NCBI GenBank assembly: GCA_040285855.1
Contig: JAUFOQ010000001.1
Coordinates: forward strand, 744,001-808,000
Reading direction: 5' to 3'
DNA: 64,000 nt
Source: Eukaryota sp. GEM-RC1
Lineage: Eukaryota
Position numbers and translations under genes: made by a program. The number at the start of each line of letters is the position of its first letter. The first letter of the stretch is position 1. A model generated the notes under the pieces. The model made no database searches. It had not been told where the DNA came from and worked only from the letters and a program-made list of their open reading frames with translations. Below are positions 21,186 to 61,906 of this stretch, in pieces.

Positions 21186-21199
21186 ACAAAGATAATACT

Positions 21200-30919: not shown

Positions 30920-31255
30920 ATAGCCAACGAAATTTTTAACGAATTAACTTCAGCTGGATTCGCTGAAGAAACTGACCCGAACTGCCCCCACGGAAGCCCA
31001 ATCGTTTTAGTTACTTATAACGACGACAAAAAGCCAAGACTGACTGGTAATTACTCTGGCAACGATGCCATGTCCATCCAAGTAGAATCTAATTTTCCAA
31101 AGATTTCTGACATTTTAGAATTCTTAAGGTCTGCCGAATTCATCGTCACGCTAGACTTGCCACGAGCCTTCTGACAGTTAAAGATCGAAGATAAAGACTT
31201 CGATAAGACGACGCTGAAGATTCCTGGTAGAGCCATCAGGTTCACTAGAGCAGCA
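30920..31255 (+). mobile_element. Ty3/gypsy reverse-transcriptase fragment
   Basis: HGSPIVLV..KPRLTGNY..PKISDIL..TLDLPRAF*QLKI..DKTT. Confidence 0.75.
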
Positions 31256-31256
31256 A

Positions 31257-31765
31257 AACGATGATGACGAAGTTGAAATTGACGAAGAAATTGAGCAGAA
31301 GATTAGAGAATATGCTAATCTCCTGTATTCCGATCCAAAATCAATTGTTAATCAGGATTTTTTCAAGGATAATCAGCAAGCGATTCTTACCGAATGCCAA
31401 CATTTGCGTCCCCACTACTGCCGGTCAACGATGTATCTTTGTATTCAGCAGTAATGCTGACGAGAATGAGCCCTTAACACTCCATCTTTGCGAGCACCTT
31501 AATGGGCTTCAAGAACCCGTCATCCCTCATTCAAACTTCACCTCTCATTTATGTGAAGACTTCTGCCAATGCTAAGTTCCGAGACTATCAGGGTCAATTC
31601 AATATCTACATGGAGATAACCCGAAAGTCGACCCCTGAATGGAAGGCGACTTACATCAACAATCTTTGTTCTCCACTTGGTTACTTTCTCACATGATCTC
31701 CCTATTTCATTCCTGCAAACCATTGTATCATTGTATCAGCCTTTAGCCATGTAGAAGTTTTTTCC
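31257..31765 (+). pseudogene. Decayed inverted copy of the SF3-helicase-like island gene (42370-42890)
   Basis: High DNA identity; IYVKTSANAKFRDYQGQFNIYMEITRKSTPEWKATYINNLCSPLG. Confidence 0.85.
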
Positions 31766-32359
31766 TATCTGACTTTCAATTGCTTTCAGTACAGCTATGC
31801 GTCAGGTGTGTGTGTTACTGTGATATTGGAGAAATGTCAGAGAATTCATGGATGAACTCCTTTCCCCGTTCGAGGATCAACTCTCAATCAACAAACCAAC
31901 TCATGGTGAGCCCCTCCATGGATTGGATCTCGTAAGAGACCTCCTCTTAAATGTGGACATCCGCGGCTTACAACTGCATGTTGATCCAATGATCCTCACC
32001 TCCTGGAAGAATGATGGGACTATCCCCACATTTTTAAACAATTGGTACATCTGGGAACGTATCATCTTGAACACCCATGCCGAATCCCCTCGTCAAGGAG
32101 AAGCCTTGATCGTCAACTGTACCATGGACTGGTCAATGAACAGGAAGTTCAAGTCCAATCGGGAACGATGAAACGATTATCTACGTTTCACCAGAGTTGC
32201 TAACGCCTGCACTCTAATCCCCATCGACGAAAAGCATTCATACAGCTTTGACGTTCGGCTCATGATGAAACATTTCGCAAGGAACGTTGCAATCCCCATC
32301 GTTTTCCATGACGTCGAGTATTTTTTCAAGGACAAGGAAATATTCAAAGAATACACCTG

Positions 32360-32880
32360 AATATTATTAATCACATGAATTGTGGATTCAGAGGTCCCAC
32401 TTGATACAAAGAAGTTTCGTTGAAGTTCTGAGTGAAAGAACTTCCTTCTTCCACTGAATAGAACTACAAAAACACAGTAATAGCTAATGGAAAACAACAG
32501 TTCTTTCAGCTTGAATGCTTAAAATGAATTATTGAACATGAATTCTGCGTGCCAACTGAAATCCTTTTTTCTGTCGCATGACTATGTTTCTAGTTTAGTC
32601 GGTGTTGTAATGTTTTTTACGTGATGTATTGGTGTAACAATGTGTAGTATAGTTTTACTTTCAGTCTTTTAAATCCATAATACAACAGTTCATTCTTTCA
32701 ACAACTCATGTTGATTTCTACACGTCACAATCTTCTAAGAACAACTAGAACAGTACGAGAGTCCATCGAAAGACATATACAATATTGATCTCAAACTTTC
32801 TTCTTCTTATACAACAATTTCTAGCTCCCTTTAAACCACTCCGATGGTCTTTGGGGAAGACTAATCAGTTGTTCTATCAT
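32360..32880. repeat. ~520-bp non-coding segment, inverted duplicate of 38165-38665
   Basis: Long reverse-complement identity, e.g. gttgatttctacacgtcacaatctt vs aagattgtgacgtgtagaaatcaac. Confidence 0.85.
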
Positions 32881-33371
32881 GTCCTCTCTTCGCAGTAACG
32901 TAATTTCGATGGTGTGGAGCTCATCATTTTTGAATATTTTTACCAAATGAACAAAATTGATTTGTTCACATTACTCATACGTCTTAGGTTCGATTCTCTT
33001 CTATAGACTTGATTAGGATTAACACACCATTTGTACCCGACTTTCTGAGACTAATCATCTACCTTATGCTGGATTGAACCCAGGGGCTGCAGAATAGCTG
33101 CAGAATTCGGTTGAGGAACTGCAACAGCACAGTCAGCAGAATTGTCTTTCCAACGTTCATAACGTTCTTCGTTGAGCACAAATCGAGCGGAAACCAAATT
33201 GTCATGTCAATGAGTTGTGCCTAAAAACGCATTCAGTACTTCAAAATTTCGGACTAATTGCAATTCACCATCTGGTGTAAGGTATAATACCCACAGCCAT
33301 TCCTTTGTATAAGTTAAACGGAACAAATACTATAACTGCTTTGACCAAGAATCAAAGTTAGGAGCTCGTGT

Positions 33372-33495
33372 AGGTCACTCAGTTTTTAAGCAAGTGACCC
33401 CGAGGTCAAAACCAGTCAGTTTTTAAGCAAGTGACCCCGAGGTCAAGGCCAGTCAGATTTTAAGCAAGTGACCCCGAGGTCAAGGCCAGTGAAAT
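33372..33495. repeat. 37-bp tandem array of the GTGACC/GGTCA site (about 3 units)
   Basis: agtttttaagcaagtgaccccgaggtcaa repeated at 33381, 33418 and 33455. Confidence 0.9.
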
Positions 33496-33607
33496 CCTAC
33501 ATCCCTAAAAATGGTATAGTAAAAAGAATCACGTTTAATACATGAAGATCATTTTTTATAGATAACATTTTTTCTATACCAGACTACACGACTTCTATAA
33601 ATGTGAG

Positions 33608-34085
33608 TAGGGACGAGAAATCACCTGAAAAGTGAGTAAGGAATACTACTCGAGTATCTGAGTAGATTTATTGAGTAGTATTCGAGTATTACTCATCAAC
33701 AAAAATTTGTTTTAGACTTTCAAGCAAATAAACACACCACTTTAATGTTCTATTTGTAGTAGAAAAAACTATTCATCATATAATGAATCTCAGCTTTACC
33801 TCTAAACTCAAAATCGCTTGAACACACTAAAATTGATTAGACATTCGAATATAATGAAGTAAAATGAACAACAACTAATAATAACACTTGGACGTTAAGT
33901 AAACCGCTTTTGTTTATCGTATAAGACTACTATCGATTCAAACGATAGTTTCGTCTAATCAAAGACGGTAATTTAAGTAGGACTCGAGTATATACTCACT
34001 CTTCAGGAAAGTGTGTATGAATACTACTCGAGTAGTACTCGGTATACTCTACTCAAATACTCTACTTGAGTAGATTATTTCCCTA
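33608..34085. mobile_element. MITE-like insertion with TACTCGAGTA subterminal palindromes
   Basis: TAGGG...CCCTA ends; absent from the homologous position near 45700. No clear TSD. Confidence 0.55.
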
Positions 34086-37000
34086 TCTCTATAAGCAACT
34101 ACGTAGATTTCATATTGATACTGCTTCTACCAGCAGTTCTAGTTGTAGCGCTATAATCTCTTCTGATCAATCTTTTACTGTTCTTTATGATTATAATTAC
34201 ATATATTGCACTCAACGCTCATGCTCTGCAGTTTCAAGTTTGTCGTTTTTTCAAAAGTGACACTGTGTCTTTGAGATATAAATCTGTCCATAAATGTATG
34301 ACATCATCATAGGAACGTGTGAGGTCTGAAATTGATTGCCCTGATACAACAGTATCTATGTTATAATTGAAAACATCTTTCTCCTGGATGAAAGCCATGT
34401 GCAGGATGGGACTGTGAAACATTTGAAGATAAGGTCTTTTCTGTTGTAGTCCACGTACTATTTTGTTCTCCAGCAGTCTTAGTTGTCTTATCATAAAAAA
34501 ATCTAGGTGGTTTTTTCCTGGCTGTAATATAATCACGTCGTGATTTGGCACCCATTTGACAAACGGATAGAGAGATAGGGTTTGTAAGTTCTTCAGTCAG
34601 ACAAGTCTCAAAGGGACAAATCTCAAAAGGTATTGGTCGGAGTAGACGTAAAATGACTCTAAGGTCAAGGTCACAAAGAATAATTGAGTTATATGTTCCC
34701 GACTAGAAATATGTCACAAACTTAAAAATAACCAAGCAATGCACACTATAAGCTTCATATTACTGATGAACCAAGTATAATTAAAACTCAAATGGTTACA
34801 TAGTTCATTTTAAGAAATGGTAAAACTTAAAATTTGTAGGTCATATCAATTCTTCAATTAACTTCTTTCCGAATCACAACTTTATGGTTTAAAACTATCT
34901 TAAATAAGAAGAAGTAGATAAATAACTGCACTGGTACGTATAATGACCACATTTCACAGTGTTGTTTAACCAAATCTTTGATACAAGGGACACTCAAAAC
35001 CAGTCTGTAGTAAGTTGTGGAAAGCTGATAGTTGAGGAACTTAAGATTTGGAGTTATATCTGATGTTCTCATATAGTCTATATGTATTTTACATTTAGTC
35101 CGTATAGTAAAGAGAGAAATTTATCAGAATCTTAAGTTCTTGATATATCACCTTTGCATATGTATATAGAACTCATGTATCAGTATGTAAATGGTGAAAA
35201 ACACATGTTAGAGTGAAGAAAAGATGATTTTGATCAGTGACCCTAAGGTCCAGGTCATAACTCATACAGCTGAAACTTTTCATGTATATCACAATCAGCG
35301 TCTTCAACAATGTTAACGTCATTAAAATGAGCAGAAGTTGGGAGATGTGTATGCAAATGGTTAAGCAAGAAATATATATAACAAAATATATGAACCCAGT
35401 TTCTATTGTGATTTGTACTGTATTTTGTAGTTCTTTTCAGTGCAAGAAGGAATTTCTTCCACTCAGAACTTCACAGAGATTTTTACTCATAGGCAAAAAT
35501 CATAGTCAAAATTCTCACAAAAAAGTTGTTATTTTTTGGGTACAGTGAGAATTTTCACGAGCCTGGTGTAAAACTCCTCAATTAATATCTCAGCTAAATA
35601 CTGAAGAACAGTTAAATGACATATTTCGATAATGTATTGGTAAAAATAATTTCTCGCAGACTGCGTATTAGACTTAGAACAAAATATAAAACAAGATTGT
35701 TACTTTTAGTGTCTCTTCAAATTTTTCTCAGAATGCCAGACGATGGTCTTTGGGCGCGAAGATTATGTTGGTGATGCACCAAATACAGAGTTTTGGAGGC
35801 ATTGGTCTTAGAAAGAAGAGAAAGTGTGTGTTTTCACGTAGTATTTTTCAGGGTTATGTTGGACACCTGAAGAGCGGCAATGTTGAGATCCAGCTTCATC
35901 AGGGAGGAATGAGTTGCGGCTGGTCCACTTTTATTAGCGCTCTGGACTGGGAGAAGAGTTCGTGACATAGATGGGACGATATCAAAATCCGGTGAGAGTG
36001 CTGTATTGATGCCTTTTGTTTTCATCATTCTCCATAACTGTTTTTTGTGTCTCCAGAACACGCTGAAAATCTTCGAACGCTTGGATATTAATAGATAGTT
36101 GTAGTAATTCCATTATATACGTTTGGCGCATTGAGAGAAAATAGTGATGTCAAGAAGGTACACAACTGGACGACAACTCACGGTCATCCAGAGCGACTCA
36201 GTACTGATTAACAGACAAATAGTCCTTCATCGTTTTGAACATCACAATGTTCTTATAATTTAAATTTGAATTTACACCTTCTTCACATATATTCTATTTG
36301 GTATTTTTCATTTTTTGAGCATTTGTTATTGTTATTGAATCATCAGACGTGTTACTGATGATCAACATTCACTGGAGTTCTTGATAAGAATGATATAGAA
36401 AAATAGAGATTAATGTTTGGATTACATTCATTAAAATTGACTTATCAATACGGAACTCAAAAGGTAGACAAGCATAAAATAAAAATACTTAATTATATAT
36501 CATTTTGTGAGTTTAGTCATTTTAAATTATCAAGTATTCAGACTGTGGGCATTTCAGTAATCAGTAGAATAATTGAAGATGATGAAACTGATGACACATT
36601 GACAATAATCAAATGTGCCTTCTACCGTTTTTTTGAAAAAATACAGTCTGATAAGAAGAATAACTAACATTCAATATCCACACAAACGAACTTGTAATGT
36701 GATAAATGTATTACAAGAATGAGATCTCATCAAAAGAGGTTGTACTAAAACCTAGAATTATGTAGATGTAGTTTATATTGCAATCAGTAACTTACCAAAA
36801 CAACGTTATATAAGAAGAAGTGGTGATCTCTCGATGCATAACACTTACAGCCAATGTCAAGATCAAGAACCATTTGGAAGGTATATCCCACAAGAAGTTT
36901 TTGCGTGGGGAAGTTTGTGTAATAAAATCAATTTACTCCCAAATCCACTGAATTTGCACCACAGTGTAGTACAAGTACGAAGCAGCATTGCAAGTTTTTT

Positions 37001-38709: not shown

Positions 38710-39435
38710 CTAAATCGAGTAGAAAAATCGCAATTTCGTTTTTTCGCATCCACACTCTTGCGATTTGATGTGAGGAGAGAAGTCAAGCAGTGGAGGCAGA
38801 GATTGCAGTGGTTCGACATCTGACTGTTCGAATTCAATACAGAGTTCAGTGTCAGAACATTCTCCAGGATTACAATAAGTGTTGATCCTGGAAAGAAAAG
38901 ATTGTGAAGGTGAATGATGAATCACCCAGGTACAAGTAATACCATCAGAATTGGCCTTCTGTCTTTGGCCTTTGGCCTTTGCAGCAGGTAGCGATTTGCG
39001 TGGCGGTGCAACAATGGGAGGAGATCTAGGACGAGGAAATAGATCTGTGACTTCGGGGCAAGCAGTTACCAATCCGGAGAATGCTCCAACAGGTGGGAGA
39101 ACATCTCTAAGAACATCGTGACCTGATGCAGGTACGTTAGTGTACCGATGTACAGAGCGGCCATCCATAGTCACTGCTGTGAATGAGAATGAGGTGAACT
39201 TGTCAATACCCTGCTGTGACAGTTCATCGATCAGCGAAGTGATCACCACGTTTTTGTCCTTTCGGACCTGCTTATAATCTTTCTTCGACCCATCGTGATA
39301 GGGAATCCCATCACTGGGTCTGAAAGTCTTTGTGGGGAGGTTTGAAGTTAACCTTTTCCACAAATGGACGAGAAGGAGTGAGTTCTTCGTCAGACATGAG
39401 AGAAAGAAAAGCTTGAATGAACACGTGTACCTCAT
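38710..39435 (-). CDS. Island orphan protein (5' end uncertain)
   Basis: 241-aa ORF; conserved homologue at 20.8-21.2 kb and a C-terminal (YSI*) homologue at ~61690. Confidence 0.6.
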   Translation of the reverse strand: MRYTCSFKLFFLSCLTKNSLLLVHLWKRLTSNLPTKTFRPSDGIPYHDGSKKDYKQVRKDKNVVITSLIDELSQQGIDKFTSFSFTAVTMDGRSVHRYTNVPASGHDVLRDVLPPVGAFSGLVTACPEVTDLFPRPRSPPIVAPPRKSLPAAKAKGQRQKANSDGITCTWVIHHSPSQSFLSRINTYCNPGECSDTELCIEFEQSDVEPLQSLPPLLDFSPHIKSQECGCEKTKLRFFYSI

Positions 39436-40064
39436 CTTTTCACTTTTCAGTGTATTGGACGCAGGCCATTGGTTCCCGTATGGCCACTAAACCTGTAGGA
39501 ATGATTGAACATGTACAGCATAAAACATTAAGGAATATTTGAACAAGTTGTCATGTCAAATTTAGAGACCTTTACCTTTGGGTTACAACAAAAACTCTCC
39601 AAAATCGTGTTTGTACACACTTAAACATACCAGGATGTCGTTTAGTACAACAAGGATTGATATACAAGCAGAGATTGTGACTCTGAAAACGCAATATAAC
39701 TCTAAATATGTCAAAGAGGGAGGAATTTGAACGCCTACTCAACATGTTGTGTGCCATGTCTATACTCTATAATGTATATTGCAAAATAAAATATTCTGCT
39801 TACAGATTTTTTTTCATATGTAATGTTGGTTTTCAAAAATTGAAACCCCAAACACAAAACAACCTTAACCATATACATGTAGTCACTTATTCCACCTATA
39901 GAACTGAACTTGGTCCAACATGAGTTTTGTTAAATATGTCTATTTCTCAACGCAAACTGTGACCATTATCAATGATACCCATAACAACTGAGATAAAATA
40001 TATACAAATGTATAGTACAAAACAAGAAATAAATACCAAACTAATGCAAAATAAGCAAGAAAAA

Positions 40065-40616
40065 CTAGCTAAGGAGGATAATCCGTGAAAACATATCAGC
40101 TAGAGCATTTGGAAGAAATGTGGGCTTACTCACATGAGGTAAATATCGATCGTGATCAGAGAGTTGTTGGATTATCCACTTTATAGCCAACATATAAGTC
40201 TTTTGATAACAACAAATAAATCCGTTGCGTTCAGAAGAAAAAGAATGATGAAGAAGAGATGATTGTTCAAAAGACTTGGAATATATGATACCATACTCTT
40301 GAGGATTGTCCAAAGCAACAAAACTAAGAAAAGGACTAAAGATTGGAGCATTTTGAACCATAGAATCACGTTGTGTCAAAGTTGACTTCGGTTGTTGACT
40401 GAGACGTTTTGACAGCCAGGAAGTCGCAGAAATATGTGTTTTATGCGTAGAGATAACGAAAGAATGAGGAAGACGTTCTTTTGCAGCATCGAAACGATGA
40501 GAGAATGTCGTGAATATGAAGCTATCACAACTACACCGAAAGTGCAGACAAGCGAACTGGAAGTGAAAGCTAGATACTGTGGATAAGTACGAACATCCAT
40601 GGAAAGGAAGAAACAA
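40065..40616 (-). CDS. Island orphan protein, possibly two divergent RNase H1-N/Cauli_VI-like domains
   Basis: Homologue at 22347-22883; two ~50-aa units ending in A..W[LI]. The domain call is speculative. Confidence 0.55.
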   Translation of the reverse strand: MFLPFHGCSYLSTVSSFHFQFACLHFRCSCDSFIFTTFSHRFDAAKERLPHSFVISTHKTHISATSWLSKRLSQQPKSTLTQRDSMVQNAPIFSPFLSFVALDNPQEYGIIYSKSFEQSSLLHHSFSSERNGFICCYQKTYMLAIKWIIQQLSDHDRYLPHVSKPTFLPNALADMFSRIILLS

Positions 40617-40877
40617 AACAAAAAACAGAAGAGGAGTTAACAGAGATTTTTTTTCCTTAACCCAATGACAAATAACTCAAACCAAGAGCCCAGTAAGAAA
40701 CAATGCAGAAAGTCTACCAGAACAACAGTAACTACACGGGATGTTGTTGTGCGCAGACCAGAAAGTACTCAGACATTAGAGTTTGCTTAATATATTCATT
40801 AATTAAAGTCAAAGGTTTTAAATTCCGCCACAGAACCGAAGAAATATGGCAGATTCAGTCCACTGTGGAAGAGTAAA

Positions 40878-41570
40878 GTGACCGAGCTGAACTCCATTGA
40901 GAAGGCAATGCAAGTGCTGCACCGCAGGGCAGCTGAACGAGAGTGGAGTGTCAGCTGTACCGTAGCATCCTACAACGGTGATTACGTTGCAAATGCAGTC
41001 TCCACTCCAGTTAATGTTGGGCCAGTGGTCATGCAGAATGCTGTTTTTACGGAACACTTCTTTGACACAGAAACTAAAGACCACTTACTTGACAGGGCAT
41101 TCGATGACCCTGATTCTCTAAAACGCTTATGGAAGGCAACTTCCGCTAAAGTGCAAAATCCATCTGGGATTGACCCTTCCATTGCAGAACCCTCCGCTGA
41201 CCACTTAGAAAATGCTTCCATTACAGAACCCTCCGCAGACCACTTAGTAAATGAAGCTGAAGCTAATCATTTAGCAGCGAAACTAAAGAAATTGCCCACT
41301 ACTAAGGTTGTCCTGATCAAAGTAGACGACGTTTGGCGTCCTGCTGTCAATGGTAGCTATGTCGGTTATCATATGGACGAGTATGTTATGCTCCCAAGTT
41401 CATATGAGCTAACAGTACAAGAGGCAGGAATTAAACCACCAACGCTAATTGAAGAACACAAGGTTGAGGACACAAAACCGTGGACCGACTTGCATGAAGT
41501 TGAACTTGCAGGAACACTTCATTATCAGTGGATGAACAACAAGTGGAGAGGTATATATAACTTTCAATAA
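40878..41570 (+). CDS. Island orphan protein (frame open back to ~40803; probable upstream exon)
   Basis: 230-aa ORF with internal duplicate SIxEPSADHL; homologue at 23103-23725. Confidence 0.65.
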   Translation: MTELNSIEKAMQVLHRRAAEREWSVSCTVASYNGDYVANAVSTPVNVGPVVMQNAVFTEHFFDTETKDHLLDRAFDDPDSLKRLWKATSAKVQNPSGIDPSIAEPSADHLENASITEPSADHLVNEAEANHLAAKLKKLPTTKVVLIKVDDVWRPAVNGSYVGYHMDEYVMLPSSYELTVQEAGIKPPTLIEEHKVEDTKPWTDLHEVELAGTLHYQWMNNKWRGIYNFQ

Positions 41571-41583
41571 ATTATTCAAATTT

Positions 41584-42996
41584 TTATTCTGAACCATCAA
41601 CAAAGAATTCATTATAATATTCGTCGATATGTGAGCTGACAAAAATATCTCTATGGGAACAGATTGCTCCTACTTCAGCCAGAAGCAGTTTAGACTGTGA
41701 AAATGCAGTAGGTATATCTGTTAAAATATAACCAACTTCAGGAATCTGAGCATTAAAATCAGGTAAGGCGCCAATTCCTTCTTCAAGATATTTTCCTAAG
41801 AAATCTTTCATTTCTTGGTTGCATTGAACGAAGGTTTTAAGCTGATTAAACTGGTGAACCGGAGACAACCTTGCCACAGTTTCATTGAGCATGTTTTTAC
41901 GCTTGTTGATAAAAAACGTGAACCACTTATGACTCATAGATGTACCCGACTTACGCATAGCTGTAGCGAAAGCAATAGGTGCCTGATAGGTACACATATG
42001 AGCTAGAAGCACATATTTTTGACCATGATGTACATGATCGATGGTGTTTGCGTAAACATGAACGCCCAAAGAGCTCACATCATGTTCACATGATTCGTAC
42101 ACCGATGACAAGTGCTCCACAGTGTCATATATTGATTTAAATAGATCAATTTTGGCAACTTGATCACTTGCCGTCAGTACTGATAAGAAAGTATTAGGAT
42201 GCACTACTGACGGAGAGTTAGTATCCTCAATTTCGCTCAATAGCGTTCGGGCCAAATTTTTAATGGGAGTAATACTCCACAGATCATTGACGTTAGGAAG
42301 TTTAAGTCATATGTCCACATGTCTGATATCAGAATAAGCCTGCATGTTGGTCTTTTTTTGCCCACTTGAAAAAACTTCTCCATGGCTAAAGGCTGATACG
42401 ATGATTACTCTTAAATGGTTTGCAGGAAGAAAATAGGGAGGGCATGTGAGAAAGCAACCAAGTGGAGAGCAAAGATTGTTGATGTAAGTGGCCTTCCATT
42501 CAGGGATCGACTTTCGGGTTATCTCCATGTAGATATTGTGTTGACCCTGATAGCCTCGGAATTTAGCATCGGCAGAAGTCTTGACATAAATGTTCGGTGT
42601 AGTTCGAATAAGAGATGACGGATTTTTGAAACCCATTAAAGCGCTCGCAAAGATGCGTTGAAGTGTTAGTGGCTCATTTTCGTCGGCATGACTGTTATAG
42701 ACAAAGATACATCGTGGACCGGCAGTGGTACGGGGACGCAAATGTTGGCATTCGGATATAATCGCTTGCCGATTATCCTTGAAAAAATCTTGTTTGACAA
42801 TTGTTTTTGGATTGGTATACAGGAGAGTCGCATATTCTCTAATCTTCTTCGCAAGTTCTTCGTCGATTTCAACTTCGTCATCGTCGTCTTGTTGGCGTAC
42901 TTGTTTTCTGACACGAGAAGAACGTGTCGAGCGACGGACAGCATTGGTACTAGACAGTTGGACCTCAGGTACATCAGAACTAGGCTGTTCGGACAT
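41584..42996 (-). CDS. Degenerate CRESS-Rep-like SF3 helicase-domain protein; a single in-frame TGA at 42307-42309 separates two co-linear ORFs
   Basis: IYVKTSADAKFRGYQGQHNIYMEI..YINNLCSP..RVIIVSA aligns by eye to circovirus Rep YWK..KWWDGYHGEEVVVIDD..LLRLCDRYP..ILITSN. ORFs 42307-42996 and 41584-42255 are in the same frame with only one stop between them. Confidence 0.6.
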
Positions 42997-43352
42997 GAGA
43001 AAGAGATGATAAAAGAAATTTCACTGAAAGGGTATAGAGAAAAAAAATCACGCTTAACCCTTAAGGATGATTTTTTAACGTTAACACTTTTTCTCTACCA
43101 GACTACACGCCACATGATCGTGATCATACATGTGCATCCAGATGACTGTTAGTCGTTGTTTGCTCTTACAACTCACCAGTTGTTTACTTATAATTTGATA
43201 GTTTTCCCTTGTTGAACCAGAAATGTTAGCGAATAAATTTCTTCCTTAACCATTTGCATACACATCTGCCCACTTCTGATCATTTTAATGATGTTGGCAT
43301 TGTTGAGGACGCTGATTCTGAGATACATGAAAAGTTTCAGCTGTATGTGTTA

Positions 43353-45155
43353 TGACCTTGACCTCAGGGTCACTCAACAAAATCATCGTTTCTTCACTCT
43401 AACATGTGTTTTTCACCATTTACATACTTATACATGAGTTCTATATACATATGCAAAAGGTGATATATCAAGAACTTAAGATTCTGATAAATTTCTCTCT
43501 TTACTATACAGACTAAATGTAAAATACATATAGACTATATGAGAACATCAGATATAACTCCAAATCTTAAGTTCCTGAACTATCAGCTTTCAACAACTTG
43601 CTACAGACTATTTTTGGGTGTTCCTTGTATCAAAGATTTGGTCTAACAACACTGTGAAAAGTGGTCATTTGAGCTGCAAATACGTACCAGTGCAGTTATT
43701 TATCTACTTCTTCTTATTTGGGTGGAATATAAACCACCAATTTGTGATTCGGAAAAAAGTTAATTGAAGAATTGATATGATCTACAAATTTGAAATTTTA
43801 CAATTTCTTAAAGTGAACTATGTAACCATTTGAGTTTTAATTATACTTGGTTCATCAGCAATAGGACGCTAATAGTGTGCATTGCTTGGTTATTTTTAAG
43901 TGTGTGACATATTTCTATTCAGGAACATATAACTCATATATTCTTTGTGACCTTGACCTCAGGGTCACTCAACAAAATCATCGTTTCTTCACTCTAACAT
44001 GTGTTTTTCACCATTTACATACTTATACATGAGTTCTATATACATATGCAAAAGGTGATATATCAAGAACTTAAGATTCTGATAAATTTCTCTCTTTACT
44101 ATACAGACTAAATGTAAAATACATATAGACTATATGAGAACATCAGATATAACTCCAAATCTTAAGTTCCTGAACTATCAGCTTTCAACAACTTGCTACA
44201 GACTATTTTTGGGTGTTCCTTGTATCAAAGATTTGGTCTAACAACACTGTGAAAAGTGGTCATTTGAGCTGCAAATACGTACCAGTGCAGTTATTTATCT
44301 ACTTCTTCTTATTTGGGTGGAATATAAACCACCAATTTGTGATTCGGAAAAAAGTTAATTGAAGAATTGATATGATCTACAAATTTGAAATTTTACAATT
44401 TCTTAAAGTGAACTATGTAACCATTTGAGTTTTAATTATACTTGGTTCATCAGCAATAGGACGCTAATAGTGTGCATTGCTTGGTTATTTTAAGTGTGTG
44501 ACATATTTCTATTCAGGAACATATAACTCATATATTCTTTGTGACCTTGACCTCAGGGTCACTCAACAAAATCATCGTTTCTTCACTCTAACATGTGTTT
44601 TTCACCATTTACATACTTATACATGAGTTCTATATACATATGCAAAAGGTGATATATCAAGAACTTAAGATTCTGATAAATTTCTCTCTTTACTATACAG
44701 ACTAAATGTAAAATACATATAGACTATATGAGAACATCAGATATCACTCCAAATCTTAAGTTCCTGAACTATCAGCTTTCAACAACTTACTACAGACTAT
44801 TTTTGGGTGTTCCTTGTATCAAAGATTTGGTCTAACAACACTGTGAAAAGTGGTCATTTGAGCTGCAAATACGTACCAGTGCAGTTATTTATCTACTTCT
44901 TCTTATTTGGGTGGAATATAAACCACAAATTTGTGATTCGGAAAAAGTTAATTGAAGAATTGATATGATCTACAAATTTGAAATTTTACAATTTCTTAAA
45001 GTGAACTATGTAACCATTTGAGTTTTAATTATACTTGGTTCATCAGCAATAGGACGCTAATAGTGTGCATTGCTTGGTTATTTTTAAGTGTGTGACATAT
45101 TTCTATTCAGGAACATATAACTCATTTATTCTTTGTGACCTTGACCTCAGGGTCA
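43353..45155. repeat. Three tandem ~595-bp near-identical non-coding units delimited by four TGACCTTGACCTCAGGGTCA sites
   Basis: Sites start at 43353, 43948, 44542 and 45136 (periods 595, 594, 594). Confidence 0.95.
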
Positions 45156-45812
45156 TTTGACTTCCACTTCTAACCAATACCCTTTGAGACTTGTCCCTTT
45201 GAGACTTGTCTGGCTGAAGAACTTACAAACCTTATCTCTCTATCCCATTGTTAAATGGGTGCCAAATCCCGACGTGGTTATCTTACAGCCGGTAAAAAAC
45301 CACGTAGACTGTTTATGATAAGACAACTAAGACTGCTGGAGAACAAAATAGTACGTGGACTACAACGTGAAAGACCTTATCTTCAAATGTTTCACAGTCC
45401 CATACTACACATGTCTTTCATTCAAGAGGAAGATGTTTTCAATTATAACTGTTGTACCAGGGCAATCGATTTCAGACCTCACACGTTCCTCTGATCATGC
45501 CATACATTTAGACACATTGTCACATTTGGAAAAAAAGACAAACTTGAAACTGCAGAGCATGAGCGTTGAGTGCAATATATGTAATTATAATCATAAAGAA
45601 CAGTAAAAGATTGATCAGAAGAGATTATATGGCTACAACAACTAAAACTGCTAGAAGTATCAGTATCATTATAAAATCTATGTACAAGGTAGTTGCTTTC
45701 ATACTGAAGTCATGTAGTCCGGTAAAGACAAAGTGTTATCGATAAAAAATCATCTTCAACTGTTAAGCGTGATTTATTTTCACTATACCATTTTTAGGGA
45801 GATATGATTTTA

Positions 45813-46030
45813 CTGGCCTTGACCTCCGGGTCACTTAACTGAGTGGCCTTGACCTCCGGGTCACTTACTTTAAAAATGAGTGACCTTGACCTCCGGGTCA
45901 CTTACTTTAAAAATGAGTGACCTTGACCTCCGGGTCACTTACTTTAAAAATGAGTGACCTTGACCTCCGGGTCACTTACTTCCAAAATGAGTGACCTTGA
46001 CCTCCGGGTCACTTACTTTAAAAATGAGTA
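45813..46030. repeat. 37-bp tandem array of imperfect palindromic (lox-like) sites, 5 full units plus 1 partial
   Basis: gtgaccttgacctccgggtcacttactttaaaaatga at 45843, 45880, 45917, 45954 and 45991; shortened unit at 45813. Confidence 0.95.
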
Positions 46031-46060
46031 AATCCCTAAAATTTATTAGATTTAAAACAT

Positions 46061-46893
46061 TCAACAATTAAACGCCTGTTCAATTCCAGTAAAATCACCC
46101 ATGTCACGCGCAGCTTCAGCTATACCTTCTCCAATATAGGTAAGAGTTGTGGTACCACTCAAATGACTTAACATTTTCTTCAACGTATCCAAACGTGCTG
46201 GTTTTTCATGAGCCGGGCCACCAAATTGCCAGTAATGGTATGCAAATGTTTTCCTCATAGTATGAGTCGAAAATTTCTTCAGTCTTAACGATCTACCAAC
46301 TTCTTTGAAAACTCTAATAACAGTTTTAACACACAGAGGCTGTCGGCAGCCTAACTTCTTTTTCTCGAGTAGAATAAATAATCATTCGGAGCGACATTTG
46401 CTGCATCACAATACTCTTGCACTACAACTTTAAGCCAAAGGGAGACTTTACGGGTGACTGTAGCATTTACCCAATGTTTTGATTTTCGTTTCTTCTTTTC
46501 TTTTATAATTAAGAATGTTGCAGTTATACTGTTCTCTTTAAAATCTTTTAATCGTAACGTCAACAAATCAGAAATTCTGAGACCAAGAGCACATCCAATT
46601 TTCCAAATAGCACCATTTCGCTTTCCATTTATTCCAGGTGTCAACGCAAGAAATTCATTGTATATAACGTCAATCATATTGGGATCTTTGATTGGAGACA
46701 TTCCCTTGTGCAACTGTTCGATGCTAATATCCAAAGTACCATGATAGTTTTCATTTTGGGCTAATGAATAAGCTTGATCATCATCACAATCAGAGAAAAA
46801 AACACATTCGTCAGATGATGTTTCATCGGCATCTGATTCAATTTCAGACATGGGAATGGGATGAGGATAGGCAAAAGGGTCGTTAGAGGACAT
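46061..46893 (-). CDS. Tyrosine recombinase (phage-integrase family), one -1 frameshift in an A5 run at ~46360
   Basis: GLRISDLLTL (R), IKEKK (K), STHTMRKTFAYH (HxxR), MLSH..TTLTYIG (H, Y). Adding one A joins YLFYSR to KKKLGCRQPL..FSTHTMRK. Confidence 0.9.
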
Positions 46894-46917
46894 TGTGAGA
46901 TGATGTATGAAAAGTAA

Positions 46918-46961
46918 AATCTGAATGTGAACTTTGTTATAACAAAGTTCACATTCAGATT
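46918..46961. promoter_or_regulatory. Perfect 44-bp palindrome between divergent YR and orphan genes
   Basis: aatctgaatgtgaactttgtta|taacaaagttcacattcagatt is seen directly; its function is inferred. Confidence 0.7.
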
Positions 46962-46992
46962 CCTTCCAACTCCAACTTTTTCACAACCCTAT

Positions 46993-48159
46993 ATGAAACA
47001 TGTTAGAAAAGAAGCTATGATTAGGAAGAAGGCTCATGATAGGCACATTGTCACCACAATTAACACTTTGAGGAAGAGTGTTGTCCTCATGAAAGAAAAC
47101 TGTCCTTATGAACATGACGTTCATAGTTGCATTGGACTAGCTGATGGGTCTCTACGTCAGATAATAGGTGTGCCATTTAACCCTTGCCGGGCAACAGTGA
47201 GTGTGTATTCTTGGTATGATCCCCAATCATTGAAGTTTGCTGAAAAAAAATACCATTTCCCATCATGGATTTTGGAAAATGATATGGATGATGGTGAGCC
47301 AATCATTTTAAAAATATTGCACGATGATCTGTTCGGCCTAAGTACCCGAACGTGGCTTTTCTACTCTTTGCTGGTCGAATCTGCAGCCAACTTGACCCAT
47401 TACATTGCCTGTAATGTTCGTTGTGTAACTGCTGTGGCTGTCGATCTCCCTGCCGCACGCCAATTCCCCCCAGCCGTGAAAAAGAAACTGGACGATCACC
47501 AAAAGCCAAGCAGGGCATCACTGTATGAACTAAACCTAGCCCGCTCAAAGAAATTGGCTCTGAAGCGAAGCTGTTTCAGCCGGAACAGCAGTGTGAGCGA
47601 ATGTGATGTCAAGTTCTCTTACAGCACTGAGCATCCATGGAGTGACACTGAAGAGTGTGGATGCGATTTCCAATGGACGAACCTGGATGGGGAACTCGGT
47701 TGGATCAAAACTCAATGGAATGTGCTCACAACACAGGCTCCGAACTTTGATTCTTGGTCAAAGCAGTTGTTGTATTTGTTCCGTTTAACTTATACAATGG
47801 AATGGCTGTGGGTATTATACCTTACAGCAGATGGTGAATTGCAGTTCTTCCCAAATTTTGAGGAACTGAATGCGTTTTTGGGCACAACTCATTGCCAAGA
47901 CAATTTGGTTTCGGCTCGATTTGTGCTCAACCAACAACTTTATGAACGTTGGAAAGACCCTTCTGCTGACTCTGCTCCTGCAGTTCCTCAAACGAATTCT
48001 GCAGATATCATTCGTACTGGCTATGAAGAACCTCTTGAAGAAACAATATTGATTGAAGAGCCAGAATCCCAACAGGAGTTTAAAACTCAGACTGTAACAT
48101 TTACAGGAAGAAGTTTATTCAAAAAGAAGAAAAAGACGATAAATAAATTCAGTGTTTAA
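46993..48159 (+). CDS. Island orphan protein (~388 aa), divergent from YR
   Basis: Long uninterrupted ORF, first ATG at 46993; decayed homologue at 33060-33371. Confidence 0.75.
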   Translation: MKHVRKEAMIRKKAHDRHIVTTINTLRKSVVLMKENCPYEHDVHSCIGLADGSLRQIIGVPFNPCRATVSVYSWYDPQSLKFAEKKYHFPSWILENDMDDGEPIILKILHDDLFGLSTRTWLFYSLLVESAANLTHYIACNVRCVTAVAVDLPAARQFPPAVKKKLDDHQKPSRASLYELNLARSKKLALKRSCFSRNSSVSECDVKFSYSTEHPWSDTEECGCDFQWTNLDGELGWIKTQWNVLTTQAPNFDSWSKQLLYLFRLTYTMEWLWVLYLTADGELQFFPNFEELNAFLGTTHCQDNLVSARFVLNQQLYERWKDPSADSAPAVPQTNSADIIRTGYEEPLEETILIEEPESQQEFKTQTVTFTGRSLFKKKKKTINKFSV

Positions 48160-48222: not shown

Positions 48223-50231
48223 TTATTCTTTGTCTTCAGGCTTTATGAATTCGATTACTGTGGCCATAAACGACCCCTTAAAAGTTTTTTCATCTACTGC
48301 CACATACATTAAAGAAGGATCCCAACAGCTGCCTTTGATATTGAATGTTTCAACACATTCTTTGTGAGCTAAAATATTGGCAAAACACGTGGAAAGAGAA
48401 TTTAAGTCAGAGTCCGGATTCTCTCTACCTACAACAGAATACTGAGGGATTTCTTTAGATCTGTCAAGCACAGCTAAAATTAGAGGCAAATCTTGTTTGT
48501 CGAAACTTACAGCTCGATGAGAATACCAGGACTGAAGAAAGTGAGCGAGATAAAGTAAATTGAAAGGAAGAGTAAAATCTAATTCAGAAGGAATGCATTC
48601 AAAAATAAAAAGACGAAAGAATTGAGTTAGTTGTGCCAATTTTTCATTTAAGATTCTACGGGCAATCTTTGATATCTCTGTGATACTGGCAATAGTATCA
48701 TCGAGATAAGTTTTAAATTGATCCTCATCAGGAACTTTGAACAATTTTGAAACCAGAGAGAATGTGGAAAGCTTTTGTCTTTTATATTGATCCTCATAAG
48801 GAACTTTGAACATCTTTGAATCCAGAATGGATGTGGACAGATTTTCCCTTTTCCATTCATTTGAGCATGTAATAGAACATGTACAACATCAGAAGACGAA
48901 ATGGGAAATCTACCAGAACGTTTAAGAAAGAATTCTGAATGTGTGAAGTTTGGCAAAGAGAAAATTTTTACAGACTCAGGCCAGAAGTTGTCAAAGTTGG
49001 ATCGTTGATCTTCGGTCATATGAATAAAAAGAGTGTCATAGCTGAGTAGAGTGACACCAATTTTAGCCAACATGGTAGCCACAAGGGTTCTTCCAGTATC
49101 TTTATGGAGAGCCAATTTAGCAGCAAATAGAGGAGTATTTTCGAGAGCAGTTTTTAAGGAGCAAAAGGACAAGAAGTTGAATACGTAGTGTTGACTTGAG
49201 TTTGTTTTACTACAAATAGCAAATTGGGGGTCTGGAGTACGGCCTTGATCGCGTTCATCAATAATCCACTGCTGATGTTCTCTATCAGTAGTGTCAAATA
49301 ATTTTGTAATTCTGAAAAATAATAATCCCAATCAACCTGAGGGCAACGATTTAAGATTTGATGCTCCCTAGTTCCAAGAGCAGCAGCCCAAACTTCAACA
49401 GGAGTCTTCCTTTCAGAAAGGTACTTACATAAAAGCAGCGAAGTAGGTGTTCCAAATGACATTGGCAGTTCATAATAAGTTTGAACAAATCCAGCTTTCA
49501 AAAAACATCGATGATGGGTAAGCAACCGCACACGGATACCGTTTTCTTGTTCAATATAGACTTTTGGTAATCTCGGACGTTTTGCGGGAGGCGGCTGAAG
49601 TGGACAATCAGAATCAGATGGAGCATTAAGTGCGGCATCAAAGTTGTCTTTAGCTGGATCATAAAATTGATACAGCTCAGAAACATGCTGTGGAATATAA
49701 TAAAACTCTTCCAGGTCAGACTCTGCATCAGTAGTATCCTCTGAAGTAAGGGACAGCTTACGAGTCAGCTCATTAATTTGATTCTCAATTGAAAATTGAT
49801 CATCATCAACAATGATGATTTGTTTTTCTTCCTTCACATTGATTAGATTCACAGGACGATTGGAATCAAGAACGATCATCTTGACTTGAGGATGCGGTTT
49901 CAGCAGCTGGCGCAACCTCAATCCTCCTCCACAGTTGACAAAAATACTGTCTGCAGCCACGGACCTCCACATTCTGGGTTGCATTGAATTCTGAAATGAC
50001 GCAGAATATCTTCAGTTGAGGCAACAGAGACAACAACAAATTGAATACCGTCTGAGTGAAGTCTTTTCTGAAGTAAGACACTATGTTACGATAACATACT
50101 TCGAGAATGGAAGATGCACATAATGAATCAACACCAGGTGCAACCAAAATCAAGACAGAAATTGCATTCACATGGTGTGTGTTCTTGATCTGTTCATAGA
50201 TGAAGGGAATACGTTCGCTCTGGATCAACAT
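48223..50231 (-). CDS. CDC45: Cdc45 replication-initiation/CMG helicase subunit, full length; one 32-nt intron and three apparent single-base frameshifts
   Basis: VLILVAPGVDSLCASSIL, VNCGG, VLDSNRPVNLINV, IIIVDD, VWAAALGT, SLKTALENT..LAKIG, SSSDVV, F..PFNLLYL..LPLILA..SVVG: Cdc45 motifs in the correct order from N- to C-terminus. Confidence 0.9.
50068..50099 (-). other. 32-nt spliceosomal intron in CDC45
   Basis: GTATGTTATCGTAACATAGTGTCTTACTTCAG. Removal gives ILE-KRLHSDGIQFVVVSV, matching the Cdc45 consensus. Confidence 0.8.
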
Positions 50232-50243
50232 GGTGAAAGAATA

Positions 50244-50253
50244 TTCCGCCAAA
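50244..50253 (-). promoter_or_regulatory. E2F-like binding motif TTTGGCGGAA in the 72-bp CDC45/E2F bidirectional intergenic region
   Basis: Matches WTTSSCSS, 12 nt upstream of the CDC45 ATG. CCGCC motifs also precede other genes here, so specificity is uncertain. Confidence 0.45.
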
Positions 50254-50303
50254 AAGATTGACTATTATCACAAGCCTGAAACTTGCACGTTTTCAATTTC
50301 CTG

Positions 50304-52203: not shown

Positions 52204-52349
52204 ATGTAATTGTATTAATATAATTATCATTAGTACTCAATATTTTCTAAAATAAATATAACTACAAGCAATAGACTGGAAGTAGTTAGATGGGGATAGA
52301 TATATAGATGTTGAACACAAATTTGTTGTTGCCACTAAAATCTGTGCAA

Positions 52350-53317
52350 ATGTTCCCACCTTTGAAGTGCAGCAGAGATGAGGATGATCACATGTATGTA
52401 TCAAACCCAAGAGATCCATCTAAACCAAAAACTATTGATCTTCAAGAGTCTTTGGTGGTATTGATACTGTCACACACCGCGAACCGTCTTCTGTGTCAAT
52501 GTTCATGTGAATTCCTGTGTTCTGCTAAACTTCCTTCTTTCTTCAGGAAGTTTGGATATCTAAGCGAGACTTGGTTTGATCTCGCTAGATGTTCTGTAAA
52601 GAGATTCTTTTCCAACAACACCTTTTCACTTTCTGCTCCTTTACACTCTTGTTTTTTCCCCGTAGCTGCGTTCTTTTCAGCTAAGATACAGTCTGTGAAC
52701 TTATTTTTGTTTGACAGTATCGAAAAGCAAGAGGTTAAGGACCGCTGTTTAATCTTGGACAAGGATAATACATATGCTGTGGGACAAATTTATACATGTA
52801 TCAGATGTGATGATTGTCTTCCATCTTTAAATCTTTCTACAAATTTATTTCCCCGTCTACAACATCTGCATGCTCGTGTGTTTCCAGAGGTAACTGGCGA
52901 TGTCTTGTATCCTTTTTGAAGTCTAATTCAACTATTACCAGTCTTTGTCTTTACACAAAGGGTCGCTTTTCCAGATGTTTCGGAATGAAGGATGTATTAC
53001 GAGGTAATATGTCTTTGCTTCATGTTGATCTTTCTAACAATTTAATTGATGACAAGGAAGCAAAGTCTCTACTTCAAGCTTTAAGATGTAATTCTACTTT
53101 GAGAAGTCTCGACCTCAGTTGTAATCTGATTGAGAATTTGACTGCTGCTAAAATAGACGAATGTTTAAGTACTAACAGAAGTTTAAGAACTCTTGATGTT
53201 AGTATGAACTACATATCCGCAGAAAATGCTGCTGAGATGGCCTTGTATGTGAAATTAAAGAAGTTGGCATCTTTGATTTCTATTGATGTTTCTGATCAAG
53301 AATTATACATTAGTTAA
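52350..53317 (+). CDS. RI/NLRC3-like LRR protein, tandem paralogue of 51127-52203, one frameshift at ~52880
   Basis: MFPPLKCSRD vs MLPLLKRSRD, FPRLQ shared; LRRs lie in the -1 frame (52814-53317). Confidence 0.75.
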
Positions 53318-54555: not shown

Positions 54556-54951
54556 ATGTCCATCCCAATCTTTGATAAGCTACTGGATGAGTTTCGATCT
54601 GTGACAAACAAAACAGGTGATGTATTCAAAATTGTTTATGACCGGAACGGTGGAGCTTCATGGTTTGTTGGACTGCCTGACATTGAGGGTGTGGATCGTA
54701 CGACTGCCCCAATACAGGTATACTTCCAATACGTCATTAACCAACATTTAATCCCTGCTCTTGAATCGAATGATGTCGAATCTTTCCCTGGTGCTGTGTA
54801 CCTTCTGCACTTTTTGGCCAATTCAAATTCTGAATTGGCAAAGAATTCTGAAAAGAACATTACAGGCCATGTAATGGGTAAAGTTGGCGGAGAATACGAC
54901 AAGCAAACGGTAAAAGAGCGACGTTCGGATACTTATTATACATCTGAGTAG
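54556..54951 (+). CDS. Island orphan protein (~131 aa)
   Basis: Open frame with ATG, divergent from the 54477 gene, protein-like composition. Confidence 0.5.
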   Translation: MSIPIFDKLLDEFRSVTNKTGDVFKIVYDRNGGASWFVGLPDIEGVDRTTAPIQVYFQYVINQHLIPALESNDVESFPGAVYLLHFLANSNSELAKNSEKNITGHVMGKVGGEYDKQTVKERRSDTYYTSE

Positions 54952-55625: not shown

Positions 55626-56100
55626 CTATGAGTCTTCTATGAGATTCCCCTCAAAGTCAAATAGGTAGCTGATATCGTCAGCGGATTGCGAACGATCATG
55701 TGGTTTATCACACATTAACGTTGTTTTTTCGGATTTAGTAAGATGAGGTCCCAGGTATTCAATGATTACCAAATTACCTTTTAAGTCGATCATACTAAAA
55801 ATTCCCGCATTGGCTCCTGGAAAGGAAGAAGGGCCAACATAAATAGGCACAAGAAGTTGGGTTAGATGCATCAATTGACCATAAGGGATCGACGTAACTT
55901 CCTCGACTGACATTCCAAAAGTACGAAATAGGATTTTTAGTATTTTTTGTCCAAAGTTCTGCTTTCCTCCTGGCTTCATCACAAGAAGTAACAATGCCAG
56001 TGTACTCCATTATAATTATTCTAGGTGGGAGCATTATGGTGACAAAAACACCTAATCCTGCATCTTTAATGGTGGACGGCTTCACCTCGAGAGGAACAAA
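55626..56100 (-). CDS. SET-domain-like protein with two tandem SET N-terminal halves (frameshifted)
   Basis: VKPSTIKDAGLGVFVT..IIMEYTG..SYFW..IDAS and YVGPSSFPGANAGIFS..IIEYLG..SYLF. The ORF track labels 55795-56085 as + but the translation is from the - strand (GTG at 56085, TAG at 55795). Confidence 0.65.
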
Positions 56101-56328
56101 AGCTCCTCAATTATTATAAAAACAATACAACGCTACAAATGTTCTCTTTTTTTTGGCAGAAAGCAGTGACCTAGCTAATAATGCATGGGGTCTGGAATTC
56201 TGGTCCCGGATCAATCACTTCTTGAACTTGATTTTCATTAATCATTTCTGGCGCTACAGATTCTTCATTAAACGAATTTAAATAATCAGAATATTGTAAC
56301 ATGGGATTAGAGAGTGCGTCTTACATCT

Positions 56329-59410: not shown

Positions 59411-60139
59411 ATTTTGAATAAATGTTTTTATTGTTTCTATTTTTGAAATATATTTGATTTCACCATATCTTTTGTTGATGTTGTTTATATACAACTTATA
59501 CGCAACTACCGAGATGTTGTTTACATACAACTTCGCATCTCTGTAGATGTTGTTTATAGAGAACTAGGTTGAAGTTCTGAATGGATAAAATCCTTCATCC
59601 ATCGAACAGAACTACAAGAAGATGAATTGAACAAAACAAACACATAAGCGAAGTCTGGAATTTGAGTTACCACATTGAAAATTTGAAGGGCAATTCAGCG
59701 TGTCATTTTTCCTTCTTCGAATTCGAATTTCTGTCTCTTCCTTTCAAAATAACGCAGTGTTTACAGCAGTGAACTTGCTCATTCTGTTTTGTTAACCATA
59801 CACTGTGTGGTATTGCAAATAGTACTTCGCCACAGTTGCCATTGGAATGTCTTTAGAAAATCAGAAGAATCGAGGTTACGTTGCTTACCAGAAAACATGA
59901 AATTGGGAATTTGCATTACAGTGGATTACGGTAATCTGACGTAAAGAGAAACAATTGAAGTGAATGTGACCACTGGCGGTATTAAAACTTTAAGTCTATC
60001 CGTTTTTGTGAGATCACGACTCTTTATGTTTGCTCTCACTAAACTGTTTGTATTACAATTTTGCAATAAACGAATGGACTGTAAAGAAGTATCAAATTTT
60101 TAGGTATGATTCACGATTCTAAATTTCTGATTTTCTGCC

Positions 60140-61660
60140 GTTACGAGCTGCCTCCACAAGACTTCTGAGAGCAAAGTTCACGTTTTTCTTGGTAGGACAT
60201 TTCTTTCGACAAATTGGACAGTTATTTTAAGGAGAAGCGCAGTGAGAACATGCAGTGTGTCCAAGTTTACATAGAAGCAATGGTAGGCGGTCAGAAAGGT
60301 TGAAGGAGTCAGAGCAGATGAAACAATCCATAGCAAAAGTGGTGAAAAGATGAGCATTTAAACACTATTTCAAAGTTTGATACCTAGGAAACACAGATAC
60401 ACTACATCCTACATTGATTTGTAACATGTACTTTCTATTTTGTGTATACTATGTATTTTGTGCATTTTCCTCAACTGCTTCTATGACAAAGGAGCTGAAA
60501 GGTTAACCATCAGTCTGTTATCATAATAACCAGCAACTATTGACCAAATAGTAACGTTGAAATTTTCATACATAGTGAAAAAATGCATTGCGGTGAATCC
60601 GCCACTGTGGATATCTAACAGTTTTTGTTTCAGTGCAAATGGAAATACATTAAGTCATCGTTATATATATCTGGTAAAGGTGATAAAATCGTCAAATGAG
60701 ACGAATTTGATAAAAACAAAATTCAAAAAAGTTGAAAAAGGGAATAGAGACGGACAACAACTCAAATCTAAATTTGCTGGCCATTAGACTAGATTTGACT
60801 TACAAAAATGGGTTCGAGCGGAGTCTGAATTGAGTTGATCACCCATCATGATGCCTAAATTTCCGGTTCTCTGTACAAGTCTGAAAAATCCGTCACTGTC
60901 TTCCTTTGAGATTCGCAATGAACTTCACTGTCTCTGCAGACCTTAAGTCGTCTTACTATGGTCAGAGACTGCTTCACTACTTCTCAATGATGTCCTCTCC
61001 ACGTCTAGAAACAGTTATATCTGCTGTAGAAGGTTTTTCCCACATCTTATCTAAACAACAATCCTTAATACCCTCTTTTATTGAGTCTGGAGTCCTTCCC
61101 TCTATCTTCTCCTATCTAGAATCCAATTCTCTTGAACTTCAACTAGCAGCTGTCCGCGTCTTCATCTGCTGGTATCTGTAATGACTTGTACCAGCCTCGA
61201 CTTCTTGTAAACGCCTTGTTTAAATGTGTTCAATCCAGTTCTAGTCAGTTACTTATATATCAATGTATCGTTGTTCTTGGTAACATCGCCCTTGATTCAC
61301 TACTCATGCGTTACCTCATCATAAGCCTTGGAATGACCCCACTCTTGATTTCAGTTCTGGAGAAGTACCACAGTTCCTCCACTAGTGCTACCACTAGTGA
61401 CTGTTCCATAACTGACGTTGTTTGGTCACTCTCAACTCTTCTTGTACGCAAACCTCTTCCCAAAGCTGACGTCATCTCACCCCTCCTCTCCTCTCATCTC
61501 TCTCCCTACTTCTACACCACAAAACCAAGGCAGTCGTCATTAATTCTCTATGGGGTCTCTTCTACATCTCTGAGTCTACAGACTCTTCCCACACTGAACT
61601 TCTCTTAAACTCTGGTTCGCTACATCAACTTATTCAACTTCTTCCCACTAGTACTGACAT
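60140..61660. repeat. Direct segmental duplicate of 17279-20040 (RING-coding start of the kinase gene, intergenic DNA, importin-alpha)
   Basis: High DNA identity; lacks the 17777-18306 hAT insertion and the ~18430-19110 segment. Confidence 0.9.
60918..61660 (+). pseudogene. Importin-alpha-like pseudogene (frameshifted, 3' truncated)
   Basis: Near-identical to 19296-20040 with indels at ~61166 and ~61480. Confidence 0.85.
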
Positions 61661-61906
61661 CCTATTCTATACCATCCTATTCTAAATCGAGTAGACTTTC
61701 CAAGTCTTCGTAACAACATTGTTACGAAACACATCATTCAACAGTGATGGTGACACGAACATGAATCAGTTAGGTCTCTTGATTCATATAGGTTGTGATT
61801 TTGATCGAATTGTTCCTAGAAGTGACTTGCAAAGATCGAATATTCTTATACGAAATTGAAAGGCTTTTGTCGCGTCCAAAATGATCTCTACGACATTCCC
61901 GTACCA

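Follow-up and report, generated by a model that had tools for sequence, protein, structure and literature searches.

A perfect 44-bp palindrome between a phage-type tyrosine recombinase gene and a divergent orphan gene in a eukaryotic contig: a possible recombinase site within a probable shared promoter

The 64-kb window analyzed here (64,000 nucleotides of contig JAUFOQ010000001.1 from Eukaryota sp. GEM-RC1) is eukaryotic in content, as it carries genes for CDC45, E2F, a kinase with LRRs, and an importin-like ARM protein, along with a hAT fragment. A tyrosine recombinase (YR) gene and its divergent neighbor, ORF388, reside within a cluster spanning ~38 to 48.2 kb, the end of which lies tail to tail with CDC45. 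Between the two genes is a perfect, spacer-less palindrome with two 22-bp arms (46918–46961, assigned to neither strand). This sequence is identical to its own reverse complement, its axis falls between nucleotides 46939 and 46940, and the symmetry ends at both edges such that no extension is possible.

The palindrome is the longest spacer-less example in the window, where the next have arms of 12 and 10 bp, and its arms are the only ones longer than 16 bp. At the composition of the window, a 22+22 palindrome is expected by chance 1.6e-8 times per 64 kb, or 1e-6 times per 4 Mb. The initial annotation had described the palindrome as exact and rare by chance, with its axis ~46 nt and ~53 nt from the flanking start codons. 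These statements hold: the sequence is unique in the window, and renewed measurement gave 46 nt to the first YR ATG (46893) and 53 nt to the ORF388 ATG (46993). The accompanying remark that such palindromes are unstable lacks support for 22-bp arms, as the repeats used in a yeast study ranged from 320 bp to 2.7 kb (PMC8053094). The palindrome is a real feature, far beyond chance and in a telling position, that is present in a single decayed copy of the cluster.

At −22.9 kcal/mol, the predicted fold of the 99-nt gap between the genes is more stable than those of shuffled sequences (z −7.4; none of 200 was equally stable). The 19-nt half-site has no other occurrence in the window when up to three mismatches are allowed, and exact palindrome patterns gave 0 matches in viral contigs and 0 in prokaryote genomes. 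A search for tRNAs found none, and no Rfam family came near its gathering score. Elsewhere in the window, inverted repeats are present at 9239–9275 (16+5+16), 18190–18213 (12+12), and 6718–6737 (10+10).

The YR gene is encoded on the minus strand in two pieces. The 5′ piece (46351–46893, 180 aa) begins with acidic, unstructured residues 1 to 57, which are followed by a catalytic half-domain carrying Arg106 and Lys134. The 3′ piece (46061–46381), in another frame, carries His-x-x-Arg, His, and Tyr. Because these pieces cover PF00589 in succession (model positions 20–102 and 102–166), they represent a single gene that a one-base frameshift interrupts near 46355–46365 in the assembly. The catalytic set R, K, HxxR, H, and Y, which together with the fold identifies a tyrosine recombinase of the lambda-Int superfamily, is complete and aligned with homologs, and is spread over the two frames. 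In the structural model of the 5′ piece, the catalytic half is confident and residues 1–57 are coil at low confidence. A fold search with this model returned Cre as the top PDB match (E 1.3e-3), and a PDB sequence search was empty for both pieces. The true start of the protein could be M65, where short bacterial homologs begin. Neither the frameshift nor this alternative start figures in the initial annotation. Judged from its sequence, the YR is a catalytic-domain-only, phage-type integrase and not a protelomerase.

The frameshift may be an assembly error, since the frame breaks of CDC45 (2 of 2 checked) and the LRR gene have the same offset as that of the YR, and both indels among three 594-bp tandem units elsewhere in the cluster lie in homopolymers. 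The frameshifts of CDC45 (48223–50261) and the LRR gene (52308–53317) suggest either systematic one-base assembly errors or pseudogenes.

ORF388 (46993–48159, plus strand) has no family match and no relatives outside the window. Its structural model, with a pLDDT of 32, is too poor to use, and the structure-atlas rows have TM scores by query below 0.3. A decayed paralog of its residues 116–142 is located at 54852–54935, antisense to a 135-aa ORF, and has no palindrome near it.

The 99-bp gap consists of a 24-nt leader, the 44-bp palindrome, and a 31-nt leader, and nothing else. The sense strands of both the YR leader (46894–46917, minus strand) and the ORF388 leader (46962–46992, plus strand) are devoid of G, a property shared by 1.5% of the 24-mers and 0.6% of the 31-mers in the window, respectively. 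Comparable G-poor stretches precede 8 other genes of the window (0 to 4 G in 24 nt). Because such leaders are common before genes here, the G-free leaders mark two promoters but say nothing of a role for the YR. In addition, the sequence TCACAA at 46981–46986 in the ORF388 leader mirrors 46893–46898 in register, 20 to 25 nt outside both arms; a mirror-register run of 6 nt has a p value of 0.008 to 0.02, and the YR-side copy includes the A of the start codon. The central hexamer of the palindrome is TTATAA (46937–46942), which is TATA-like on both strands. AATAAA follows the stop codons of both genes, as it does at 4 of 5 other gene ends checked.

Provided that translation does begin at the first ATGs, this make-up of the gap means that an upstream promoter, whether for the YR gene or for ORF388, has to be located within the palindrome or extend across it. 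The earlier suggestion of a symmetric promoter or operator fits this leader-palindrome-leader arrangement, as well as the gene-adjacent inverted-repeat sites found in the nearest phage relatives of the YR. No such palindrome is present at the window's remaining pairs of divergent genes (CDC45/E2F, 40.6–40.9 kb, and 22.9–23.0 kb). CDC45 and the E2F gene diverge across ~70 bp (50232–50303), with the E2F-site-like sequence TTTTGGCGG before CDC45.

The YR gene and ORF388 appear to belong to a decayed virus-like mobile element. A second copy of the cluster (31251–35377, minus strand) is inverted, rearranged, and 82–91% identical to the first, and the YR, the palindrome, and two-thirds of ORF388 have been deleted from it. 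At its junction (33371/33372), the last 37-bp repeat is joined to a position matching 47731. The deletion breakpoints are located roughly 0.8 to 1 kb either side of the palindrome, a single event that proves nothing. Circular permutation between the two copies was considered and rejected, as the junctions fail to align.

Just past the 3′ end of the YR gene are about five 37-bp units with TAGGGA/TCCCTA ends (45795–46038, no strand assigned), which are probably MITE-like. The adjacent segment (43027–45793, likewise unstranded) lies between 81-bp inverted repeats (85%) and contains the three 594-bp tandem units, which are 99% identical and each end in the 37-bp-repeat motif; it could be an insertion or an invertible segment. 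Two short elements (45795–46038 and 33608–34085), both with internal repeats and TAGGGA/TCCCTA ends, resemble hAT MITEs and have no clean target duplication. The 37-bp repeats are disfavored as a YR site, given that a 10-bp spacer would be needed, the motif is also found in the 594-bp units, and the ends are MITE-like. A literature search on the 37-bp motif returned nothing relevant.

Also within the cluster is ORF229 (42307–42996, minus strand), which has a paralog (63823–63969) directly upstream of a protein-primed PolB remnant, and which exhibits a third-position bias relative to copy 2 (28 of 59 changes, p 0.017). ORF229 and ORF223 (together 41584–42996) share a frame with a single TGA between them, and are possibly one gene of ~470 aa. 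A broken protein-primed PolB (pPolB) gene occupies 61829–63619 on the minus strand (PF03175, E 1e-8 and 2e-6), and PolB-like pieces are also found at 20.8–22 kb and 39.1–39.3 kb. Three related decayed clusters (20771–23950, 38710–42996, and 61829–63969) have protein-primed PolB pieces and orphan genes in common. We infer a decayed family that is Polinton-like or linear-plasmid-like. The pPolB and the YR are both in the window, and the link between them consists of shared paralogs and a 59-aa piece only. Among the ORFs scanned, no Pfam or PHROG match to a capsid or packaging ATPase was obtained, in a search that divergent capsids would escape.

Other features of the window include a hAT dimerization-domain remnant between 62-bp tandem repeats (25906–26756) and a segmental duplication (17275–21792 and 60137–62603, 83–93%) in which an importin-like gene adjoins PolB remnants. 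An ORF at 55795–56106 resembles by eye the start of a SET domain, and its Pfam search gave no match.

To place the YR among known proteins, a representative library was searched, which yielded 17 non-self matches (E 3.5e-6 to 1e-3) to short YRs of 102 to 318 aa. Relatives that carry an annotation are integrases encoded by phages of Streptococcus, Clostridium, and Listeria. The 3′ piece is closest to a group of phage YRs of ~270 aa, its best matches being 44–46% identical, and the identity for the 5′ piece is 27%. Word-index protein searches retrieved the window's own proteins only. Searches of viral and metagenome contigs with the YR pieces, ORF388, an ORF230 alignment, and a pPolB piece revealed no closely related loci.

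No perfect inverted-repeat arm longer than 15 bp was found in 80 phage loci with related YRs, and no spacer-less arm longer than 7 bp in 73 distinct regions upstream of such genes. Of the 23 loci whose YRs are ~270 aa long, 6 have a gene-adjacent motif of another design, TTTASAAC-N7-GTTSTAAA, located within ~110 bp of the gene, and 17 lack it. Scanning viral contigs for this pattern yielded at least 120 loci; 40 of the 120 listed are shorter than 1 kb. A YR of this group is nearby in 18 of the 120 listed loci, which represent 15 distinct contexts, 6 of them seed contigs. The degenerate position is complementary in all 18 listed loci with the YR, versus 50 of the 102 without it (Fisher p 1e-5, or 1e-4 on distinct contexts, with kinship of loci ignored). 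The motif, with its 8–9-bp arms and an odd, asymmetric, and variable 7-nt spacer, looks like the core site of this phage YR family and is a candidate for an undescribed recombination site. Beside the ~270-aa YRs of gut and environmental phages, it exhibits compensatory C/G changes and extra half-site repeats (loci L004, L009, L015, L016, L021, and L023; L099, L116, L117, L131, L132, L135, L149, L163, and L176). A further motif, found close to YR genes of the Clostridium type (8 of 80 loci), was set aside, since by eye it resembles coding sequence of an upstream zinc-finger gene. A literature search limited to main texts found no paper on this element or on the sites of this YR family, and none was found on the sites of catalytic-domain-only phage-type recombinases that work in eukaryotes.

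The TTTASAAC-N7-GTTSTAAA motif is absent from the 64-kb window. The 44-bp palindrome shares its position with the site of the phage relatives, from which it differs in both design and sequence. A reading of it as a mirrored AAC plus 7 nt would echo the phage arms; this reading is post hoc, with only 5 of 8 arm bases in agreement, and was given little weight.

Our preferred interpretation, which we hold tentatively and at somewhat less than even confidence, is that the palindrome serves as the YR's own two-fold-symmetric binding site, and probably its crossover site, embedded in a bidirectional promoter for the YR gene and ORF388. In the proposed scheme for binding, cutting, and transcription, a YR dimer would bind the two arms and cut either side of a symmetric, even-length center of 6 or 8 bp, thereby integrating, excising, or resolving the element. 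The bound YR would also limit how much the two genes are transcribed, in the manner of resolvases at res and rst sites. Template switching is the probable origin of the perfect symmetry, or the means by which it is renewed. This copy of the element did not integrate through the site, as the chromosome still contains it intact.

Several observations favor such a YR site. An inverted-repeat site often adjoins the gene in the nearest phage relatives, the YR has its full catalytic set and Cre as its top fold match, and the palindrome fills the entire gap except for the G-free leaders. The TATA-like center, the mirror-register TCACAA, and the AATAAA behind both genes also count in its favor. YR cores are described as inverted arms around 6–8 bp (PMC2847244), and the gene-adjacent palindrome fits this description with any even center. 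Unlike the relatives' site, the palindrome has no asymmetric overlap, and for directionality a natural core usually requires its spacer to be asymmetric; TnpI cores that are symmetric remain able to recombine, but lose directionality (PMC2847244). Also counting against a YR site are the lack of a second intact copy, given the deletion in copy 2, the different architecture of the phage motif and its absence from the window, the 73 upstream regions with no spacer-less arm longer than 7 bp, the 17 of 23 long-YR loci that lack the motif, the distance of the relatives as reflected in the 5′ piece, 22-bp arms that exceed the need of such an enzyme, and the frameshift in the YR as assembled.

The closest layout, by analogy, is tnpS-rst-tnpT. 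In Tn4651 and TnXax1, the YR gene tnpS and the divergent tnpT flank an rst site that holds their promoters, and resolvase binding autoregulates such site-borne promoters (PMC7157771), an arrangement to be compared also with Tn3 res sites. As there, a YR gene and an orphan divergent gene flank the putative site, whereas here the host is eukaryotic, no Tn3 transposase is seen, and ORF388 is family-less. Compared with the IRS of Tn4430 and Tn5401, the palindrome is spacer-less and without the IRS accessory repeats. The small Bacillota-type phage YRs (PF00589, PHROG 216; P0041-like proteins of ~270 aa, and others of 180–190 aa) have the same motifs and likewise lack a core-binding domain, and part of that family has a gene-adjacent inverted-repeat site; they differ in that identity is 27–46% and that their short arms surround an asymmetric spacer. 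Among YR-encoding Polinton-like viruses (PgVV/Gezel-14T and OLV11-like Yrec), which are similarly eukaryotic and combine a YR, a pPolB, and a putative gene-adjacent site, PgVV is reported to have a recombination hotspot or putative att site adjoining its YR gene (PMC4642659). Here, by contrast, no capsid, ATPase, or long terminal repeats were found. The palindromes described for Halocafeteria elements are terminal and paired with RVE integrases (10.64898/2026.07.28.741278).

It is also conceivable, though we consider it rather unlikely, that the palindrome is a bidirectional core promoter created by inverted duplication of one promoter and read by host factors with no action of the YR. The anatomy of the gap, the TATA-like center, and the leader motif in mirror register would all be expected from such an event, and template switching is reported to give perfect hairpins in one step (PMC10710096). 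This account leaves unexplained why the sequence sits where relatives of the YR keep their site, and no palindrome of this kind accompanies the remaining divergent pairs of the window. The same one-step mechanism (PMC10710096) could have produced a neutral, recent fold-back mutation that fell in this gap by chance. Identical arms in a cluster whose copies diverge by ~10% suggest youth, and the window has other unexplained inverted repeats, such as that at 9239–9275. We regard this origin as unlikely, given that the only arm longer than 16 bp in 64 kb is positioned precisely between two leaders, next to the gene for a YR.

The initial annotation also drew an analogy with protelomerases, and a telRL-like site for hairpin-telomere resolution (PMC3558466, PMC13236599) would require that the YR cut 3 bp away from the axis on both sides, sealing the hairpin ends of a linear episome. 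There is a likeness to phage N15, wherein telRL, a palindrome with a self-complementary center, lies 165 bp upstream of the YR-fold gene telN; the window's palindrome near the YR gene has a self-complementary 6-bp center as well. Integrated Ectocarpus viruses are reported to hold an internal telRL-like site (PMC13236599). As a claim of family membership, however, the analogy fails. Neither YR piece matches the ResT/TelK catalytic domain PF16684 at E ≤ 10, while the N15 TelN control does so at E 8.7e-24 and matches four protelomerase Pfam models. The YR has no BLAST similarity to TelN and carries a His-x-x-Arg motif, which counts against membership. TelN is a 631-aa protein with TelK_N, muzzle, stirrup, and ResT-TelK domains, none of which was found in the YR. 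The YR has no match to TelK_N and no predicted folded N-terminal DNA-clamp domain, and no protelomerase is among the matches listed in the fold search with the 5′-piece model. Because it lacks both the Pfam match and BLAST similarity to TelN, the YR is, on sequence grounds, no member of the TelN/TelK/TelA/ResT family.

Pfam, BLAST, motif, size, and fold search all speak against a hairpin-telomere resolution site, and the cluster is linked to a protein-primed PolB. Protein-primed PolB systems solve end replication with a terminal protein. We consider hairpin resolution here quite improbable. The same low likelihood applies to a more speculative version, in which a miniature phage integrase captured by a eukaryotic virus-like element would have evolved independently, outside TelN/ResT, into a telomere resolvase, with its once asymmetric crossover site made fully symmetric, cut across the axis, and acting as both the hairpin-sealing site and the promoter of both genes.

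Alternatively, the axis could be a junction at which a linear element's terminal inverted repeats, each bearing the promoter of its terminal gene, meet in a circle or head to head. This would yield an exact palindrome without a spacer, as well as genes that read inward from either end of the element; pPolB remnants lie nearby, and copies 1 and 2 have a permuted block order. Such a junction is very unlikely, as there is no free half-site elsewhere in the window, the permuted blocks join uncleanly, and 22 bp is short for such repeats. Least probable is that assembly or polishing symmetrized an imperfect repeat: the assembly looks indel-prone (the CDC45, LRR, and YR breaks and the homopolymer indels), but a fold-back chimera normally duplicates far more than 22 bp, and both flanks are unique and gene-like.

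Should the palindrome be no more than a duplicated promoter or the scar of a template switch, it would have little significance. If it is the target of the YR, it would provide a defined 44-bp substrate for a catalytic-domain-only, phage-type recombinase working in a eukaryote. Moreover, because a symmetric center, which removes directionality, is also the precondition for hairpin formation, the YR and its palindrome would then directly test by what route an ordinary recombinase could become a telomere resolvase.
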